DNA from: an uncultured delta proteobacterium
Lineage (GTDB): Bacteria > Myxococcota_A > Polyangia > Polyangiales > Polyangiaceae
Assembly (NCBI GenBank): GCA_963841435.1
Contig: CAWJCS010000003.1
Location: forward strand, 256,001-320,000
Direction: 5' to 3'
Length of the DNA stretch: 64,000 nucleotides
The number at the start of each line of letters is the position of its first letter. Within the stretch, counting starts at the first letter, position 1. Positions 31,264-37,745 of this stretch are shown here, piece by piece. The notes under the pieces were generated by a model. The model was not told the DNA's origin and searched no databases. It was given only the letters and a program-made list of their open reading frames with translations. Both the position numbers and the translations under genes were made by a program.

Positions 31264-32700
31264 GTGATGAGAGCGCATTATCGAAGGTTTGCATTCTGGC
31301 AGCGGTGCGGAGGCCTGGGGTTGCTCTTCACGCTCTCGGGCTGCACCTCCGATGACGCGGGCACGTCGAGCTCCGGCGGAGCCGCCGCCACGGGTGGCAG
31401 CGAGACGGGCGGAACGGTCAGCTCCGGCGGAGCCACCGCCACGGGTGGCAGCGGGACGGGCGGAACGGTCAGCTCCGGCGGAGCCACCGCCACGGGTGGC
31501 AGCGGGACGGGCGGAACGGTCAGCTCCGGCGGAGCCGCCGCCACGGGTGGCAGCGGGATGGGCGGCAGCGCCGCGGGTGGTGAGAGCGGCGGCGGGTCGC
31601 CCGCGGGCGGCTCTGGGGGTGCGGCTCAGGGGGGCGCGGGGGCCATGGCGGGAGGCGGCGGCTCTTCGGATGCCGGTGCGGCAGGCGCGGGGGCCATGGC
31701 GGGAGGCGGCGGCTCCTCGGATGCAGGTGCGGTGGGCTCCGGCTCAGGCGGAAGCTCGGCGGGAGCCGGCAGCACCGTGGACGCCACCATCATCCCCGAC
31801 CCCGGCTGGGCGTGCGGCATGAAGGACGGCATTCCACCGCCCACGAAGGGCACGCTTGCCTTCACCATCACGCTGAACATCCGGGCCGAGCACGACGTGG
31901 GCAAAACGCCCTACGGCAACCGGCGCCTACTCGACGTGAGTGGCGGAACCATCGCGGGCGCCCGTCTCCAGGGGACGGTGGTGACCGGCGGTCTCGAATA
32001 CGAGCTCACCCTCGACAACGGCGTCATGGAATACCAGGGGATCAACGTTCTGGAGACCAGCGCGGGCCGGATCTTCGTGCGCAGCTGCGGCGTAGCTCGC
32101 GACAAGGACTCGGACGCTCGCATCATCCCCGATTTCGAGGCCACCACGAGCGGAGCCAACGCCTTTCTCAACACGGGGAAATGGGTGGCGACCCGCGAGC
32201 TGACGAGCGGGATGATGAAGCTCGACGTCTACGACGTCTCTTCCGTGACGCCGGGCGAGCCGCTCGTCGAGCTCAAAAAGCCCACTGGGGTGCCTCCACA
32301 GCCGTGGGAATGCAACCTGACCAAGGGCACTCAAGGCGCGCAGGTGTTCACCGAGAACGTCTCCCTGGGAGGGTCCTACGGCATCAACAACGCCAAGTAC
32401 GGATCCCGCAACATCATCCCCATCACCGGTGGGACCACCACCGGCAAGGTCACCGGTATGATCCTCAACGGCGGTGCCGACTATCAGCTCTCTGGCTCAC
32501 TGGACGCCTGGTACACCCTCGCTCCGGACAATGGCGAATTCATCCTGGTCAGGAATTGCGGCGCCACAGGGGGGCTCATCCCGTGGTTCGAGGCCAAGGT
32601 CAACGGCGCCTACGACTTCCTCAACACTCAGGCCTACCTGAGCTCCCCCCCAGGGGTCGGCGGCGGGGGTGTGTCCATTACGTTCTACGACCGAAAATGA
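31264..32700 (+). CDS. Lipoprotein with repeat linker and tandem DUF3237-like domains
   Basis: LSGC lipobox, 51-bp repeats, VGKTPYGNRRLLDVSGGTI.G.RLQGTV and GSRNIIPITGGT.TGKVTG.ILNGGADYQ. Confidence 0.8.
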   Translation: MMRAHYRRFAFWQRCGGLGLLFTLSGCTSDDAGTSSSGGAAATGGSETGGTVSSGGATATGGSGTGGTVSSGGATATGGSGTGGTVSSGGAAATGGSGMGGSAAGGESGGGSPAGGSGGAAQGGAGAMAGGGGSSDAGAAGAGAMAGGGGSSDAGAVGSGSGGSSAGAGSTVDATIIPDPGWACGMKDGIPPPTKGTLAFTITLNIRAEHDVGKTPYGNRRLLDVSGGTIAGARLQGTVVTGGLEYELTLDNGVMEYQGINVLETSAGRIFVRSCGVARDKDSDARIIPDFEATTSGANAFLNTGKWVATRELTSGMMKLDVYDVSSVTPGEPLVELKKPTGVPPQPWECNLTKGTQGAQVFTENVSLGGSYGINNAKYGSRNIIPITGGTTTGKVTGMILNGGADYQLSGSLDAWYTLAPDNGEFILVRNCGATGGLIPWFEAKVNGAYDFLNTQAYLSSPPGVGGGGVSITFYDRK

Positions 32701-32763: not shown

Positions 32764-33507
32764 TTATCCCGGCAGAACCCCGAGCTCCCGGAGCCCAGGC
32801 AGGATCACCCCGTCGATCGCCTCGTCCACGGCTCCGCCGACGACCTCGGACGAAAGGTACCCGAGCGCATGCAGCGCGGGATCCCCCACCCGGCTCGTGG
32901 ACTGCCACACCAAACGGACGAGCCGCGTCATCTCCGGAACGTAGCCTGCGAGCATCGATCGGTCCCGCGCGCCGAGCCCCGGCCAACCGAGCAGCGCCCA
33001 ACCGAGCCGCGAATGCCCGACTTCTTCCGACAGGTGCTGCTGGTTCAACCGCCGCGCGCTCGGCACCGTGATGAGCTGATGCGAAGCCCTGAGCACGTGC
33101 ACGGCCACGGTCTCGCTGAAACAACAGCCGAATACCGTGCGCAGCAGGCGATTGTCGTGCGCCGACGCTCCCTCGAGCTCGAGTGGCCGCGTGCCGGTGA
33201 GCTCCGGCAGCACGGAGCGCTCCCCGTCCACGAGCCGCGCCCAGCGCTGACAGTAGTCAACGTGCCGGTGCTCGTCCGAGATCGCCTTCTCGGCGAGCGC
33301 CGTCAGCTCGGCTGGAGCGCCCTCCACGTGCAGATCGTCCAGCATGAACTCGAACGTCAGGGCCGTCGTCAGCTCCCCACTCGCGCGGTCAACCCAGTAG
33401 GCGTGGAGCTTGTCTCGCTGAGCGGAGGAGAGCCCAGCCAAGGCGTCGCGCGTCTCGGGCTTCTCGAGCTCTCGATCGATCTGCCGGTAGACGGCAGGCA
33501 AGCTCAC
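32764..33507 (-). CDS. Ferritin-like (diiron) domain protein
   Basis: GTG overlaps the upstream TGA; W..RASGE, SDEHRH, CCFSET, EEVGH (two E...ExxH half-sites). No signal peptide. Confidence 0.85.
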   Translation of the reverse strand: MSLPAVYRQIDRELEKPETRDALAGLSSAQRDKLHAYWVDRASGELTTALTFEFMLDDLHVEGAPAELTALAEKAISDEHRHVDYCQRWARLVDGERSVLPELTGTRPLELEGASAHDNRLLRTVFGCCFSETVAVHVLRASHQLITVPSARRLNQQHLSEEVGHSRLGWALLGWPGLGARDRSMLAGYVPEMTRLVRLVWQSTSRVGDPALHALGYLSSEVVGGAVDEAIDGVILPGLRELGVLPG

Positions 33508-34118
33508 TTCAAGATCCCGGTGAAGGCGCAGGGACACAGCGTGACGCCTTCGTCGCAGCGGATCGCGCTGACCTTGGTGCCGGACGAAAGGCTCACGCAC
33601 GGGCCGCACATGGATTCGTCCACCACGCATTCGCAGTTCACCGGGAGCTGACTCCCGCGGGCCGTCACAGCGAGCTGACAGAGAAACTGGGCGCCCGGCT
33701 CGCAGTCGTCGGGGCCCCGAGGGCGAGACGGATCGACCGGACAGCTTTCCGCGACCTCGACCCCGTAGCCGTAGCCCGCGAGCGGGCCGCTCGTGTAGTC
33801 GCACGACATGACGAGACCCCGGCAGTCCCACTGCGCCGTGACGCTGGCATCGGGCGGGATCTCGCCACCGCCGGCTCCCGCAGCCCCACCCGCGGCGCCG
33901 ACGCCGGTTCCGCCGCTGAGAGCGATGACGCCGCCGCTTCCGGCACCGGAAGAGCCGCCGCCCGCCCCGCTGCTCCCACCCGTCGGTTGGGGACCGCCCG
34001 CGCTGCCGGCGTCGTCCGTCTCGCCGTGCGTGACCGACTCACCGCCGCAGTGCGCTGCGGCGAGGCCCGCGCCCACCACGACCAGGGTGTGAAAGAGGCG
34101 GGAGCTTTGGCGTGTCAT
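33504..34118 (-). CDS. 12-Cys domain lipoprotein, paralog 2
   Basis: ATG overlaps the upstream TGA; LFHTLVVVGAGLAAAHC, Gly linker, QWDC...CPVD..RP....C...VNCEC...CPCAFTGILK. Confidence 0.8.
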   Translation of the reverse strand: MTRQSSRLFHTLVVVGAGLAAAHCGGESVTHGETDDAGSAGGPQPTGGSSGAGGGSSGAGSGGVIALSGGTGVGAAGGAAGAGGGEIPPDASVTAQWDCRGLVMSCDYTSGPLAGYGYGVEVAESCPVDPSRPRGPDDCEPGAQFLCQLAVTARGSQLPVNCECVVDESMCGPCVSLSSGTKVSAIRCDEGVTLCPCAFTGILK

Positions 34119-34684
34119 TTGGGGATGAGGATGCCGGTGATGGCGCAAGGGCAGACCTTGCTGGCGCCGTCACAGAACCCCTCGATCGGTCTGGGCGTGA
34201 AGGGGCTCACGCACGTGCAGTCTGCCGCGACGGGCTCGCAGCTGCAGTTCACGAGCAGGGGCTCATCGGAGACCGTGACGACCAGGTGGCAAGTGAAGCG
34301 CTCGTCGGACGCGCAGTCGGACGCGTCGCGGGGGCGGTCCAACTCGACCGGGCACGCATCGGCGAGCAGCTGCCAGGCCGAGGGCGGGGGGCCGCTGCAA
34401 GCGCCAACGAGATCCGTGCAATTCCATTGAGCCTCGGAGCCAGGCTCGGGGATGCCCGCGCTACCCGCGGCGCCACCGGGCGCGGGCTCCCCGGCACTTC
34501 CCGCGCTGCCGCCGGCCGTTCCCGCGCTTCCGCCGGCCGTTCCCGCGCTCCCGCCGGCCGTTCCCGCGCTCCCGCCGTCGCCGGCACCTCCGGCGGGGGT
34601 GCCCTTGCGATCCGAGCGGCCCGCGCAAGCGGCCACGGAAAGGCTCGCGCCGACGACGACGAGGGCGTGGAAAAAATGCGCCAT
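34115..34684 (-). CDS. 12-Cys domain lipoprotein, paralog 1
   Basis: FFHALVVVGASLSVAAC, (GGSAGTA)n linker, QWNC...CPVE..RP....C...VNCSC...CPCAITGILIPK. Alternative GTG start at 34702. Confidence 0.8.
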   Translation of the reverse strand: MAHFFHALVVVGASLSVAACAGRSDRKGTPAGGAGDGGSAGTAGGSAGTAGGSAGTAGGSAGSAGEPAPGGAAGSAGIPEPGSEAQWNCTDLVGACSGPPPSAWQLLADACPVELDRPRDASDCASDERFTCHLVVTVSDEPLLVNCSCEPVAADCTCVSPFTPRPIEGFCDGASKVCPCAITGILIPK

Positions 34685-34958
34685 GGATTTTGCCTGCCGC
34701 ACCTAGTGTCGGCCCCAACTCCCTTCCGTCGAAGGAAATCCGCAGGGGCCCCGGCGAGGACCGCGAAAGAACGTGGGCCGAGGGACTCGGCCGCTCGGAC
34801 GACTAGCGCGGGCAAAGTTCCCCTGATCACGCGCGGCGATCGAGCTTCCGTCCAAGCACACCGCGCTCCTGGAGTGGCCGAGGCTCAGTGGGGCAACGCA
34901 GCGTTGGTGTGGCCGTCGCGCGACGAGATCGGCCGCGCGCTGCAGCGGGCCGACCGCG

Positions 34959-35927
34959 TCAACCGCGCGGGGCAACCCTCGCCGCGAGGCGATCGAACAC
35001 GGTCCAGAATTGGGAGCGATATCCGTCGACCTCCATCAGGATCTCGTGGAACGCCGAGGGCACCTCGGCGTAGGTGCCGTCCTTTAGGCGCGCCGCGAAA
35101 CGACGGATCGGACCGTTGTTCACGACGTGGTCGTCGCCCGCCGCCACGACCGAAACCGGGCACGACAGGCGCTCGGCCGCAAAAGCTTCCGAGAGGCGCC
35201 CGCGGAGCTCGAGGCCAAACTTCAACCAGCGCCAGGTTGGCTCGCCGAGGCGAAGCTCGGGGTGAGCGCGGTAGAGTGCCAGCGCTTTCTCGTAGCGGGC
35301 CCGATCGTGCGTGAGAACGTTGTCTTCGAACGGCACGCCCAACGGATCGCTCTGCTTTCTCGCCAGATTCGTGCCGCGGCCGAGCGCGACGGCGACGGCG
35401 ACCACCGGGCGAGCCAGCCAGACGGGGATGCTGCCGGTCGAAAACTCCATCATCGGCGCGCACAGCACAGCGCCGTCGAAGTGGGCGATCCCGTCCGAAA
35501 GCGCCAGCGTGGTGAGCGCTGCGCCCATGGAATGCCCCATCGCGATCCAGGGTCGCGGCAAGTGCTCGGTTTGTGACGCCACAACGTCCGCGAAGTCCGA
35601 AAGGAAAGCGCCACAGCCCCCGACCACGTCACCGCGCAGGGGGTCGTCGAGAAAGCGCGTGGAGCACCCCTGCCCTGCCCAGTCGTGGAGCACGACGACG
35701 AAGCCGCGCGCCACGAGGTCGCGCGCCACCTCGCCGTACTTTTCGATCGGCTCGGTTCGACCAGGGCTGAAGACGACGGCCCCCCGCGGCAGCCCGCGCG
35801 GCGTGAAGCGCGCCACGCGCAGGCGTTAACCGGAGCTCGCGAATAGCCACTCCGCGGACCCTTCGGGCAGCTCGAACGCCCCCTGCACATGCCGGAGCGG
35901 CGCGGGCTCGGTTCGGAGCACGAGCAT
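34959..35927 (-). pseudogene. Lysophospholipase L2-like alpha/beta hydrolase with premature stop
   Basis: PGRTEPIEKY, DWAGQG, GHSMG, LTHDRARY, AFHEILME. An in-frame TAA at 35826 separates the N-terminal 33 codons; a restart at GTG 35816 is possible. Confidence 0.8.
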
Positions 35928-36200
35928 CCTCAGGGCCGCGCAGCACGATCCAGGCGCACGAGGAACACGCCGGGGCCATCTGCTCGCAGGAGATTGTCGT
36001 GGCCGAAGTCGGCAAGAAAGCCAATTGCCCTCACCGCGCCAGTGTATCGCGACTCGACGCCGACGCCCGGCGACTTGCTTCACGGCGTTTTACGACTCGG
36101 GTGGTTCCGTCGCGACGACCAGGGGGTTCTTCGCTTTGGTTGGACAGCACGCTCGCGGCGTGGAACGTCGACACGAGCACTTTTCCCGCGATTTCAAATC

Positions 36201-37745
36201 ATGCGCAGACTTATCGTTCCTGGCGTGCTGTTGGCGTCGCTCGCCATCGCGTGCGGTGGGACCGAGCCTGCTTCGTCGACGGCGAGCGGCGGAAACGGCG
36301 CAGCGGTCGGCGGCACGGCGAACGCTGGCGCGAGCGCGGGCACTTCGGCGCAGAGCGGCGGCGCGACGCAGAGCGGCGGCGCGGGCGGCAGTGCGGGCGC
36401 TGGTGCCACCCTTGGCGGAGCGGGGAACGGCGCGGGAGCGCCAGGTGGTAGCGGGGCGGGCGGAGCAGGAACGGGCGGCACCGAAACGGGCGGGGCCGGC
36501 ACGAGCGGCGCCGGAAGCAGCGGCGCTCCTTTCGGCAGTGCGGGCGACGCCGGAAGCAGCGGATCTCCGAGCGGCGGCGCGGGCGGCGACGCGAGCGGGG
36601 GGACGCAGAACGGCGGAACCGCGGGCGGAAGCGGAACCGCGGGCGGAAGCGGAACCGCGGGCGCCGGTGGCGCGGATCCCGGTAACCCGTGCACGAGCGG
36701 GACGGGCGGCGCCGCGACGAGCCTGCGCGACAAGTACGCGCCTTGTTTTCCGGTCGGCGCTGCCGTCGATGCTCAATCGTACATGACGCACGCGGCCTTG
36801 CTGACGAAGCACTTCAACAGTGTCACTGCCGAAAACGACATGAAGTTCGACGCGCTCGAGCCCAACGAAGGGCAGTTTACCTATGGGACGGCGGACAACA
36901 TCGTCAGCTTCGCGACGAGCAACGGGATGAAGGTCCGCGGCCACGCCCTGGTCTGGCACCGACAGACCCCGGCGTGGGTGTTCGCGAACGCCTCGAAGGA
37001 CGTGCTCCTACAGCGGATGCGGAATCACATCGACAACGTGATGAAGCATTTCAGCGGGAAGGTCTACGCCTGGGACGTCGTCAACGAAGCGATGATGGAG
37101 GACGGCGACTATCGTAAGGGCGACGAGACCAACGACGATCAGAAGAGCCAGTGGTACGCGCTCGCCGGCGCCGACTACATCGCGGAAGCGTTTCGCGCCG
37201 CGCGCGCGGCCGACCCCAACGCCAAGCTCTTTTACAACGACTACTACAACTACCTGCCGATCAAGCAGCAGGGCATCCACGACATGCTCAAGGGCCTCCT
37301 CGACCAGGGCGTGCCCGTCAACGGCGTCGGTCTGCAGTGCCACCTGAACATCGAGCCTTCCACGGACTCGACCAATCAGGCCTACTACCAAGCGGTCAAC
37401 CACCTCGAGGACGCCATCAAGCTCTACGCTTCGTTGGGCCTCGAAGTTCAGATCACCGAGCTCGACGTGTCGCTCTACATTCCCGGCATTACTTACACGT
37501 CGAGCCAGTTCTACACCGAGGCGACGTTCACCGACGCTCTGAAGACCCAGCAAGCAGCACGCTATCAGAGCTTTTTCGAGCTCTTCCGCAAGTACGCGGG
37601 CGTCGTCACGGGGGTGACGTTCTGGGGCGTCGCCGACGACAACACCTGGCTCTCCGAGTTCAGCTCCGGTCGCAAGGATTTTCCGCTGTTGTTCGACACG
37701 AGCCACCAGCCCAAGAAGGCCTACGACGCGGTCGTGAATTTCTGA
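36201..37745 (+). CDS. GH10 endo-1,4-beta-xylanase lipoprotein
   Basis: Lipobox-like AIAC, Gly linker, TAENDMK, RGHALVWH.QTP, WDVVNE, LFYNDY, GLQCH, ITELD, TFWG, PLLFD. Confidence 0.95.
   Translation: MRRLIVPGVLLASLAIACGGTEPASSTASGGNGAAVGGTANAGASAGTSAQSGGATQSGGAGGSAGAGATLGGAGNGAGAPGGSGAGGAGTGGTETGGAGTSGAGSSGAPFGSAGDAGSSGSPSGGAGGDASGGTQNGGTAGGSGTAGGSGTAGAGGADPGNPCTSGTGGAATSLRDKYAPCFPVGAAVDAQSYMTHAALLTKHFNSVTAENDMKFDALEPNEGQFTYGTADNIVSFATSNGMKVRGHALVWHRQTPAWVFANASKDVLLQRMRNHIDNVMKHFSGKVYAWDVVNEAMMEDGDYRKGDETNDDQKSQWYALAGADYIAEAFRAARAADPNAKLFYNDYYNYLPIKQQGIHDMLKGLLDQGVPVNGVGLQCHLNIEPSTDSTNQAYYQAVNHLEDAIKLYASLGLEVQITELDVSLYIPGITYTSSQFYTEATFTDALKTQQAARYQSFFELFRKYAGVVTGVTFWGVADDNTWLSEFSSGRKDFPLLFDTSHQPKKAYDAVVNF

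Follow-up and report, generated by a model that had tools for sequence, protein, structure and literature searches.

Leader-bearing lipoproteins paired with a ferritin-like diiron protein in Myxococcota: a candidate precursor-plus-enzyme cassette

Three genes on the minus strand of a 64,000-nucleotide stretch from an uncultured delta proteobacterium of the Polyangiaceae (assembly GCA_963841435.1, contig CAWJCS010000003.1, positions 256,001 to 320,000; hereafter the window) encode two Cys-rich lipoprotein precursors, lipoA and lipoB, followed by a ferritin-like diiron protein without an export signal. The genes are joined by overlaps, as an earlier note made from the letters of this DNA had described: the lipoA stop and the lipoB start share ATGA (34118-34115), and the lipoB stop and the diiron start share GTGA (33507-33504). 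On present evidence, this cassette is lipoprotein-RiPP-like (RiPP, a peptide made by the ribosome and modified after translation) with a new enzyme class, and it belongs to a large family that carries no name.

The two lipoproteins are paralogs (35% identity, E 8e-19), and the 12 Cys of their C-terminal domains stand in register. Both consist of a leader of the form ...(L/F)FH(A/T)LVVVGA...C, a linker, a domain of about 105 residues and a tail CPCA(I/F)TGIL(K/IPK). In lipoA, the leader MAHFFHALVVVGASLSVAAC is followed by a Gly/Ala/Ser-rich linker, the 12-Cys domain and the tail CPCAITGILIPK; in lipoB, the leader MTRQSSRLFHTLVVVGAGLAAAHC precedes its own linker, the 12-Cys domain and the tail CPCAFTGILK. 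The Gly/Ala/Ser-rich type of linker recurs in neighbouring lipoproteins within the window. The register of the Cys, the common leader and the CPCA(I/F)TGIL motif had all been pointed out in the earlier note and were found in both proteins.

Lipoprotein signals are made of an n-region, a hydrophobic h-region and a lipobox [LVI][ASTVI][GAS]C. The lipobox of lipoA, SVAA-C, is canonical, while that of lipoB, AAAH-C, departs from the rule by a His at position -1. The initial description of both products as lipoproteins agrees with the lipobox of lipoA, whose start is ambiguous by 18 nt, and needs qualification for lipoB. In lipoB and several orthologs (LLD-C, LLE-C, ALH-C, LLQ-C), the presumed -1 position is occupied by one of H, D, E, Q and N, and at these non-canonical lipoboxes the Cys and the following GG(R/K)S stay conserved; judging from this pattern, the conserved leader Cys may serve beyond lipidation. 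Twin-arginine translocation (Tat) signals carry the motif S/T-R-R-x-F-L-K in the n-region, and neither the lipoA nor the lipoB leader contains RR.

Comparison with orthologs revealed that the two ends are the conserved parts of these proteins, since the leaders share a mean pairwise identity of 0.66 and the last ten residues one of 0.70, against values of 0.33 for the Cys domain and 0.36 for the linker. Leader and tail are thus about twice as conserved as the Cys domain that separates them. Among 18 full-length orthologs, the leader never varies at F9, L12, V13, G16, A17 and C24 and keeps H10 in at least 90% of cases. An alignment of 19 Cys domains, taken from the window and from related loci, shows no variation at W4, at 11 of the Cys or in C-x-C-A-x-T-x-I, with the twelfth Cys present in at least 90%. 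The leader His and the TGIL motif, whose conservation the earlier note had proposed to check, have therefore both been retained. The closest database relative of lipoB is 82% identical. Neither lipoprotein has a match in Pfam or NCBIfam. The AlphaFold2 (AF2) model of the lipoB Cys domain is beta-rich with a pLDDT of 71.8, falling below 50 in the last 7 residues, and a Foldseek search with it against the PDB gave no match below E 2 and no known fold. In a word-indexed protein search, lipoB was swamped by its Gly-rich linker (6 matches) and the Cys domain alone was insensitive (3 of 16 candidates), and lipoprotein relatives were therefore sought by profile and genome searches.

Table 1. Coordinates of the cassette and its flanking signals in the window
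Feature	Position	Strand	Description or basis
lipoA	34115-34684	minus	ATG start, 189 aa; Cys-rich lipoprotein precursor (open reading frame and sequence)
lipoA, alternative GTG start	34702	minus	195 aa; adds VRQAKS, giving a charged n-region
lipoB	33504-34118	minus	204 aa; paralog of lipoA
Diiron gene	32764-33507	minus	GTG start, 247 aa; ferritin-like diiron-carboxylate protein, signal-less
lipoA leader, through lipobox Cys	34625-34684	minus	Leader profile E 7.2e-12 and leader regex match
lipoB leader, through conserved Cys	34047-34118	minus	Leader profile E 6.0e-13 and leader regex match
lipoA 12-Cys C-terminal domain, including tail CPCAITGILIPK (34118-34153)	34118-34435	minus	Domain alignment
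lipoB 12-Cys C-terminal domain, including tail CPCAFTGILK (33507-33536)	33507-33839	minus	Domain alignment
Terminator-like hairpin 3' of the upstream Hydrolase_4 gene	34776-34792	minus	Consensus match only
Terminator-like hairpin 43 nt past the diiron stop codon	32699-32721	minus	Consensus match only

The third gene had been read as encoding diiron ligands and no export signal, and the comparison with relatives bears this out. Its product has no hydrophobic stretch at the N-terminus, and its orthologs begin, with M, at the same aligned position as the window GTG. The ligands E45, E79-x-x-H82, E132 and E162-x-x-H165 are invariant in 29 orthologs; across 36 paralogs, W38, E45, E79, H82, E132, H165, W170 and G216 are invariant and E162 nearly so. 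The AF2 model (pLDDT 96.8, pTM 0.92) is all-helical with nine predicted helices, and this helical bundle with its two E...ExxH pairs places the protein in the ferritin-like diiron-carboxylate superfamily. It is a distant relative of AurF (PF11583) and not a member by Pfam's rule, as its 19.5 bits (E 6e-4) do not reach the gathering threshold of 29.6. AurF is the sole Pfam family to match recurrently, in 13 of the 36 paralogs at E <=0.01 (best 9.4e-9), and precomputed PF11583 marks are present on part of the orthologs; weak Ferritin and Rubrerythrin matches occur in 4/36 and 3/36 paralogs, respectively. NCBIfam holds no match for the protein, and its orthologs go by the public names 'hypothetical protein', 'ferritin-like domain-containing protein' and 'diiron oxygenase'. 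Its ESM Atlas neighbours are unnamed Myxococcota clusters, with acyl-ACP (acyl carrier protein) desaturase-like clusters among them; a weak ESM Atlas lead (0.78) to 'BfoA_C' (PF28386) yielded no Pfam match, and the literature on 'BfoA' concerned unrelated uses of the name.

Structural comparisons place the model more precisely. In the PDB, Foldseek placed the R2-like ligand-binding oxidase R2lox, aldehyde-deformylating oxygenase (ADO) and a PaaC-like protein highest, with E near 5e-3. An exhaustive structural scan returned the toluene/o-xylene monooxygenase hydroxylase (1t0q_B, Z 17.0), 4mud_A (Z 16.8), the methane monooxygenase hydroxylase (1fyz_A, Z 16.6), ADO (5ux2_B, Z 16.2), the R2 protein 6y2n_A (Z 15.6) and R2lox (4hr0_A, Z 14.7), and the top neighbours aligned over 200-228 residues, nearly the whole model. 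The bacterial multicomponent monooxygenase (BMM) hydroxylases, PaaC-like proteins, ADO, R2lox and the R2 subunit of ribonucleotide reductase (RNR) are thus its best structural matches (Z 14.7-17.0), although they share only 9-14% sequence identity with the diiron protein and a PDB sequence-profile search gave chance or de novo diiron-bundle matches only. AurF (2jcd_A, Z 11.9) and CmlI (5hyh, Z 11.3), diiron N-oxygenases of PF11583, share the ferritin-like diiron fold and the E...ExxH...E...ExxH ligands but score below the BMM hydroxylases, PaaC-like proteins, ADO and R2 (Z 15-17). Storage ferritins, bacterioferritins and Dps are built of four-helix subunits of about 160 aa assembled into 12- or 24-mer cages; ferritin/Dps chains reached Z of about 10-11 over about 134-150 residues of the model. 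As helical bundles attain Z of about 13-14 through architecture alone, according to the scan tool's own note, these scores place the fold class, that of catalytic-type diiron carboxylates, and not the function. At that level, the predicted fold is closer to catalytic diiron oxygenases than to storage ferritins.

The pairing of this enzyme with a Cys-rich lipoprotein is conserved. The diiron enzyme has 135 database relatives at E <=0.001, and the 119 non-self relatives listed are 54-71% identical to it and come from metagenomes and from Polyangiaceae/Myxococcota metagenome-assembled genomes. DNA around relatives was retrieved for 33 loci, 6 from species genomes and 27 from Joint Genome Institute (JGI) metagenomes. 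At 25 of these orthologous loci, the Cys-domain profile matches an open reading frame (ORF) that lies on the strand of the enzyme gene and directly upstream of it. Five of the eight misses have at most 59 nt of upstream DNA and are not judgeable, which leaves 28 testable loci, 25 of them with a Cys-rich lipoprotein directly upstream that ends at the enzyme's start codon; some loci (L034, L042, L062) are near-identical and hence not independent. In 15 of the 25, the enzyme match starts at the final base of the lipoprotein's last sense codon, which reproduces the 4-nt overlap of the window. One testable miss, L065, carries a frameshifted remnant of the Cys domain and tail. Two lipoprotein copies at an orthologous locus are found in the window only. 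The coupled arrangement first noted in the window is thus confirmed and far exceeds chance. At L065, the leader is present twice in inverted orientation (909-1004, minus, and 2335-2430, plus) and lipoprotein and enzyme are both frameshifted, so that this locus is either poorly assembled or decayed.

The 12-Cys domain itself keeps the same company. Its profile matched only lipoA and lipoB in their own genome and had no match in 400 other sampled Myxococcota genomes, while in five genomes carrying an enzyme ortholog it found eight places, five of which are the orthologous loci. In one of these genomes (G405), two 12-Cys copies flank a paralogous diiron gene in the order lipoprotein-enzyme-lipoprotein. 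Overall, the domain adjoins a diiron gene in 9 of 10 genomic copies from six genomes. The orphan copy, in G401, has no diiron gene nearby, and neither the LFH core (here RLVPALIITGAAL) nor the tail (here CSCMYVSIH) is preserved in it. The earlier note had asked whether lipoprotein homologs occur mostly without a ferritin-like neighbour, and the counts at the orthologous loci and among the genomic copies answer that they are mostly paired. No third gene, whether protease, transporter or partner, was found conserved among 108 flanking ORFs scanned at seven orthologous loci (out of 170 long ORFs from nine loci, after L054, L057 and ORFs over cassette genes were dropped); a LuxR/TPR regulator and a flavoprotein are common to L036 and L052 alone. 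The G401 orphan, located at L068:4094-4981 (-) on C572, adjoins a Cys-rich protein with CDCGCG repeats.

The leader is specific. In the own 7.78-Mb genome, which yields 70,145 six-frame ORFs of at least 60 aa, a relaxed leader regex picked out lipoA and lipoB and nothing else. With a leader profile of 32 positions built from 30 sequences, 11 matches were obtained in five large genomes at E <0.005: eight lie directly upstream of a diiron match, one directly downstream, one is divergent from it (two tandem Cys-rich lipoproteins) and one is false, being the membrane segment of a permease. In 401 genomes, the profile gave 38 matches at E <=0.001, namely 2 in the own genome, 15 at loci used to build it and 21 new ones. 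Eleven of the new matches adjoin a diiron gene, one lies at a contig edge and nine do not adjoin. Those next to a diiron gene brought new tail types (L090, ending in ...GMVIIL, L096, L104, L109 and L110). Among the nine non-adjacent matches, six (L106, L107, L111, L112, L114, L115) align only to the generic hydrophobic and lipobox part of the model; the others are L113 (an LFH core in a 427-aa protein, from model position 6), a permease and L099 (a 448-aa protein).

Searched against 1.84 billion representative proteins, the leader profile retrieved 199 clusters at E <=0.001. Of the best 150 of these, 148 were new and were analysed, and 140 proved usable (at least 60 aa, with the leader within the first 60 residues), with a median length of 136.5 aa. 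An R or K precedes the leader core in 114/140, and the His position is H in 110/140; RR stands directly before the LFH core in 2/140 and within 8 residues in 15/140. At lipobox position -1, 122 proteins have G, A or S, and the remaining 18 have H, D, Q, N, V or R, as in lipoB. The C-terminus follows a rule as well: the chain ends in R, K or L in 93/140, the penultimate is I, L, V, F or M in 94/140, and the end pattern hydrophobic-[ILVFM]-[LKRVIAFHE] occurs in 84/140, against 1006 of the 26,332 six-frame ORFs that the own genome supplied as a crude background. Many of these proteins contain hardly anything besides a leader, a disordered acidic linker and a hydrophobic tail, many of them acidic disordered peptides of 40-60 residues, and 26/140 have no Cys besides that of the lipobox, so Cys cannot be the general target of a modification. 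By regex, the 148 proteins divide into 39 of the window type, 10 CPPGSE, 6 WPxTK, 3 CCWLM, 1 WLHWF and 89 'other', many of the latter ending in ...(M/F)V(L/I/A)IL, ...C.C...I(K/R/A) or ...C(F/Y)(V/I). Eight leader proteins that were checked are 'hypothetical protein' or nameless in public sources, and NCBIfam, run on 68 of the 148, named none and returned sub-threshold signal-peptide noise only.

The same association extends to distant relatives of the enzyme. With the diiron enzyme as query, matches at E <=1e-5 occur in 135 of the 401 sampled Myxococcota genomes, the own one included, often six or more per genome, and the non-self paralog matches listed are all at most 36% identical. At 21 of 29 distant-paralog loci (L004-L032), the enzyme gene is directly preceded, on its own strand, by a small ORF that has an N-terminal signal and Cys, and at two more a small lipoprotein-type ORF lies downstream or convergent (L008/L074, L007/L105). 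Most of these lipoproteins bear a window-type leader, while their mature parts do not match the window Cys-domain profile. They end in tails of other types: ...GWP(I/T)TK, ...CPPGSE..PPC(F/V)LIL, CCWLM..HPCC, C.CAAVGPF(N/S)PP, C.PWGPP.PP and ...SWMHWF. On a maximum-likelihood tree of 36 enzymes, 12 changes suffice for 12 tail types, where the minimum is 11, the shuffled mean is 26 and none of 200 shuffles was as low (L031, a near-copy of L023/L029, and L074, at the same place as L008, were omitted, and five rows are labelled by orthology only). Enzyme clades thus co-diversify with tail type, and the partnership is old and stable.

One major clade of this tree goes with the LFH leader, and the other (PWGPP and VGPFxPP types) with seven leaders of the form (R/H)(R/A)(R/K)AL(R/Y/L/D)A..., of which five contain RR in an RRRAL context that looks Tat-like. 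This second motif is shared by precursor leaders from L014, L024, L025, L027, L032 and L079. Tandem duplicated precursors are found in the window and at L006, L014, L069 and L071. At L071:1955-2984 (+) (G140 C3:5005454-5006483), two tandem Cys-rich lipoproteins with (M/L)(Y/F)RAIVL(R/G)GASLVG leaders are divergent from the diiron gene, so that the precursor-then-enzyme order is usual but not obligatory. The own genome contains a second precursor/enzyme pair, of the other clade (L079:1770-2498, minus, and the ORF upstream; G000 C6:777769-779058), whose precursor has a leader ...TRRRALDSAAKIALG...C and a tail ...CSPWGPPVPPALVIA. It also contains a third diiron paralog with a weak DUF455 match (L078:2124-2996; G000 C4:729035-730495), upstream of which, across a gap of about 200 nt, lies a lipoprotein that consists of little else than Gly-rich F(L/A)AGFGG repeats.

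A further group of relatives unites both parts in one polypeptide. In the own genome, remote ferritin-like relatives (profile E 1e-10 to 7e-4) form the C-terminal domains of long exported lipoproteins. The protein at C5:16182-17930 (L075:1683-3431, G000) has an ordinary lipoprotein signal, a Gly/Thr-rich linker, a 26-Cys region and a ferritin-like domain in which E/ExxH/E/ExxH is intact; further fused forms lie at L076:1868-3172 and L077:1635-2831. Relatives keep this architecture within a single reading frame (43% identity over residues 85-568), and 27 of the family's 31 genomes match a fused form, one of them as many as 22 times. These proteins resemble the cassette in combining signal, Gly-rich linker, Cys-rich region and intact ligands, and differ from it in that their domain is only remotely related (profile E 1.7e-6 to 1e-10), their signals contain neither LFH nor RR and the whole protein is predicted to be exported. 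Pfam and NCBIfam provide no name for the fused forms, nor NCBIfam any for five own-genome paralogs. The fused forms carry the motifs EHAS..FARF, DETRHAE, GE and EDEARHA, and a region of 23-33 Cys after the Gly-rich linker.

Within the window, the unit comprises the three genes, given that the flanking genes are unrelated to them and that terminator-like hairpins lie on either side; the hairpin at 34776-34792, after the hydrolase gene, gives the cassette a separate 5' boundary. The terminator scan found 3 sites against a shuffle mean of 0.9 (sd 1.1). The neighbours are an alpha/beta hydrolase, a DUF3237 lipoprotein on the opposite strand and a glycoside hydrolase family 10 (GH10) xylanase. The DUF3237 lipoprotein (31264-32700, plus), convergent to the cassette, has two DUF3237 domains and tandem GGxxATGGSxTGGTVSS repeats. 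The xylanase, also a lipoprotein, is encoded at 35889-37745 (plus); a GH10 gene also lies 3' of the orthologous cassette in L044 (3931-6735), and its presence beside both cassettes may be remnant synteny or chance. A programmed frameshift or read-through joining lipoB to the enzyme was considered and ruled out, as the tail stays conserved in its frame right to the stop codon, no slippery site exists at the junction and the junction varies among orthologs. The listing of RNA data for the locus returned none, and one soil-metagenome DNA run contains 0.08 of the locus words.

The interpretation that we favour, with a probability of roughly 0.45, is that the signal-less diiron protein acts as a cytoplasmic oxygenase that modifies the lipoprotein preprotein before export. 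The three genes would then constitute a self-contained precursor-plus-enzyme cassette, in which the ribosome would make one or two lipoprotein preproteins and coupled translation would next yield the cytoplasmic enzyme. The latter would bind the preprotein ahead of its hand-over to Sec, through the leader ((R/K)-(L/F)-F-H-x-L-V-V-x-G), through the hydrophobic tail (C-x-C-A-x-T-G-I-L-K/R) or through both, and O2 at the diiron site would bring about an oxidative modification, most likely in the C-terminal tail. The modified protein would be exported and, where the lipobox permits, lipidated at the conserved Cys, and its 12 Cys would form disulfides outside the cytoplasm. Extended beyond the window, and put forward with somewhat greater reserve, the proposal would describe a Myxococcota-wide family of ribosomal lipoprotein and lipopeptide precursors, in at least 199 clusters, whose signal peptide doubles as the recognition leader for new ferritin-like, AurF-related protein-modifying diiron oxygenases, each enzyme clade oxidatively rewriting a different hydrophobic tail before Sec export and lipidation.

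Known RiPP systems offer both parallels and contrasts to this proposal. According to PMC13056109 (PNAS 2026), signal-less MNIO enzymes of the ChrH/DybH type modify a C-terminal CPxCGxG in DAG-RiPPs, whose substrates are peptides or whole proteins with lipoprotein signals that are then lipidated via the ordinary pathway, and whose clusters often hold precursor and enzyme alone; the N-terminus of these precursors is argued there to be under relaxed selection. The arrangement by which DAG-RiPPs are recognised, a lipoprotein-signal precursor beside a signal-less enzyme gene, is also that of the window. Both systems are minimal cassettes of one signal-less iron-dependent oxidase and a precursor with a signal for signal peptidase II (SPII), oxidase and signal being putative in the window; both have a Cys motif at the extreme C-terminus (CxCAxTGIL in the window cassette), a whole protein can be the proven or proposed substrate, and in both the modification is proposed to be cytoplasmic, ahead of export and lipidation. 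They differ in that the DAG-RiPP enzyme is a TIM-barrel MNIO (DUF692) and the window enzyme a ferritin-like four-helix-bundle diiron protein, that the leader is among the most conserved parts of the window cassette and that the tails are unlike. DUF692 has no Pfam match in the window enzyme, its paralogs or the 108 flanking ORFs. Bufferins, described in PMC11626156 as MNIO-modified, signal-peptide-bearing copper-binding RiPPs, likewise derive from ribosomal precursors with export signals and are modified on Cys by an iron enzyme; unlike the window cassette, they involve another enzyme fold and a partner, BufC, and the targets in the leader family cannot all be Cys, as its 26 members with a lipobox Cys only imply. 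The words 'ferritin' and 'diiron' have zero occurrences in the text of PMC13056109, and a literature search, with subscription journals outside its coverage, found no paper on a lipoprotein-diiron pairing.

Several observations count in favour of modification of the preprotein, among them the coupling and conserved pairing of the genes, the specificity and conservation of the leader, the conserved tail, the diversity and tandem duplication of the precursors, the match of enzyme clades to tails, and the catalytic-type fold with its invariant ligands. The G401 orphan without a diiron neighbour lacks the LFH core and the CA.TGIL tail, and the fused forms lack LFH; the cassette is minimal and has no conserved third gene, as are some published MNIO clusters. 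The RiPP-like maturation suggested in the earlier note has withstood the note's own refuting conditions on gene pairing and on conservation of leader and tail, and has gained strong comparative support from the finding of the same leader on unrelated lipoproteins beside distant paralogs and from enzyme clades that track tails; the exported fused paralogs speak for another model. Other observations weigh against it. L046 and L051, 2 of the 28 testable loci, have no lipoprotein upstream of the orthologous enzyme, and 6 of the 29 paralog loci have no small lipoprotein-type ORF within 1.5 kb. A folded domain of 105 aa and 12 Cys is atypical as a RiPP core, and no protease, transporter or RiPP recognition element (RRE) domain was found by Pfam and NCBIfam on the window proteins or in the flanking-ORF scan. 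The non-canonical lipobox in 18/140 leaders makes classical lipoprotein processing uncertain there. Co-inheritance of gene pairs alone would yield much of the match between clades and tails, which does not by itself show recognition. Finally, the fused forms suggest that the ferritin-like domain of the wider group can sit outside the cytoplasm beside a Cys-rich region, which a purely cytoplasmic maturase does not predict.

This last point leads to a different account, in which the lipoprotein would be a membrane anchor and not a substrate, its tail docking non-covalently onto the diiron enzyme. The cassette would be a split version of the fused proteins, with the enzyme hanging from a lipid-anchored flexible linker after being co-exported with its partner (hitch-hiking), or meeting, on the inner side of the membrane, a signal-anchor that is left uncleaved. 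The fused exported forms in the own genome and in 27/31 family genomes fit such a tether, as do the ATGA/GTGA overlaps, since coupled translation suits a 1:1 complex, the co-variation of tail and enzyme, and the many leader proteins with little beyond leader, acidic disordered linker and hydrophobic tail. The RR of 5/7 second-clade leaders, in their Tat-like context, also points this way, and the 18 non-canonical lipoboxes would suit an uncleaved anchor. The window enzyme, however, has no signal and LFH leaders have no twin arginine (RR directly before the core in 2/140), and the 12-Cys domain would suit Sec export and oxidative folding outside, not cytoplasmic folding before Tat export. The fused forms are only remote relatives with ordinary signals, and tandem duplicated anchors for a single enzyme are hard to explain. 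A tether is the main rival reading, and we consider it unlikely.

Further from the evidence, the diiron protein could act on a small molecule or lipid, as do AurF, ADO and acyl-ACP desaturases, the lipoprotein being co-transcribed as a sensor, regulator or export factor. Known members of the AurF family act on free arylamines and not on the product of a neighbouring gene; AurF is the nearest Pfam family, the structural neighbours ADO, R2lox, PaaAC and BMM hydroxylases act on small or lipidic substrates, and acyl-ACP desaturase-like clusters figure among the ESM Atlas neighbours. Such a role would nevertheless leave unexplained the specific leader and C-terminal end rule across unrelated lipoproteins and the match of clade to tail type, and no further biosynthetic or carrier genes are conserved near the seven loci scanned, which makes it quite improbable. 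The metal or redox module that the earlier note offered as its alternative, with a Cys-rich lipoprotein binding metal outside and a ferritin-like protein storing or detoxifying iron or peroxide inside, could invoke the 12-14 conserved Cys, the ferritin-like fold and the weak Ferritin and Rubrerythrin matches among the paralogs. It has been weakened by the 26 relatives with a lipobox Cys only and by a 247-aa bundle of catalytic type, whose Z is 15-17 with oxygenases and R2 but drops to about 10, for some 140 aligned residues, with ferritin/Dps; the two proteins would moreover occupy different compartments, and the conserved elements are leader and tail, beyond the Cys pattern. We hold it to be very unlikely. 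Myxobacterial lipoprotein toxin/immunity cassettes have a conserved N-terminus, a variable C-terminus and a co-varying downstream gene, and the present family is likewise constant in its N-terminal region, hypervariable towards the C-terminus and followed by a gene that co-varies. A polymorphic lipoprotein toxin with a downstream immunity protein is still hardly credible here: the downstream genes all belong to one family with invariant diiron ligands, unlike toxin-specific immunity proteins, many of the toxins would be acidic disordered peptides of 40-60 residues, and Pfam and NCBIfam scans of the window proteins, with NCBIfam also run on 68 leader proteins, found no toxin domain.

The system is simple, with two genes and invariant leader, tail and ligands, and the question that it raises is directly testable. 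To our knowledge, the chemistry associated so far with ferritin-like diiron oxygenases concerns small molecules, lipids and radicals. Were the enzyme to modify the product of the adjacent gene, a new enzyme fold would enter ribosomal peptide and protein maturation, as the first ferritin-like diiron RiPP maturase and as a second, independent invention of the lipoprotein-RiPP route. A signal peptide would then have been selected as a recognition element, which bears on the timing of export versus modification. Should the tether prove true instead, it would represent a new way to display an oxygen-activating enzyme on the cell envelope. Under the maturation proposal, myxobacteria, which belong to a phylum prized for natural products, would hold a large unmined set of lipid-anchored products.

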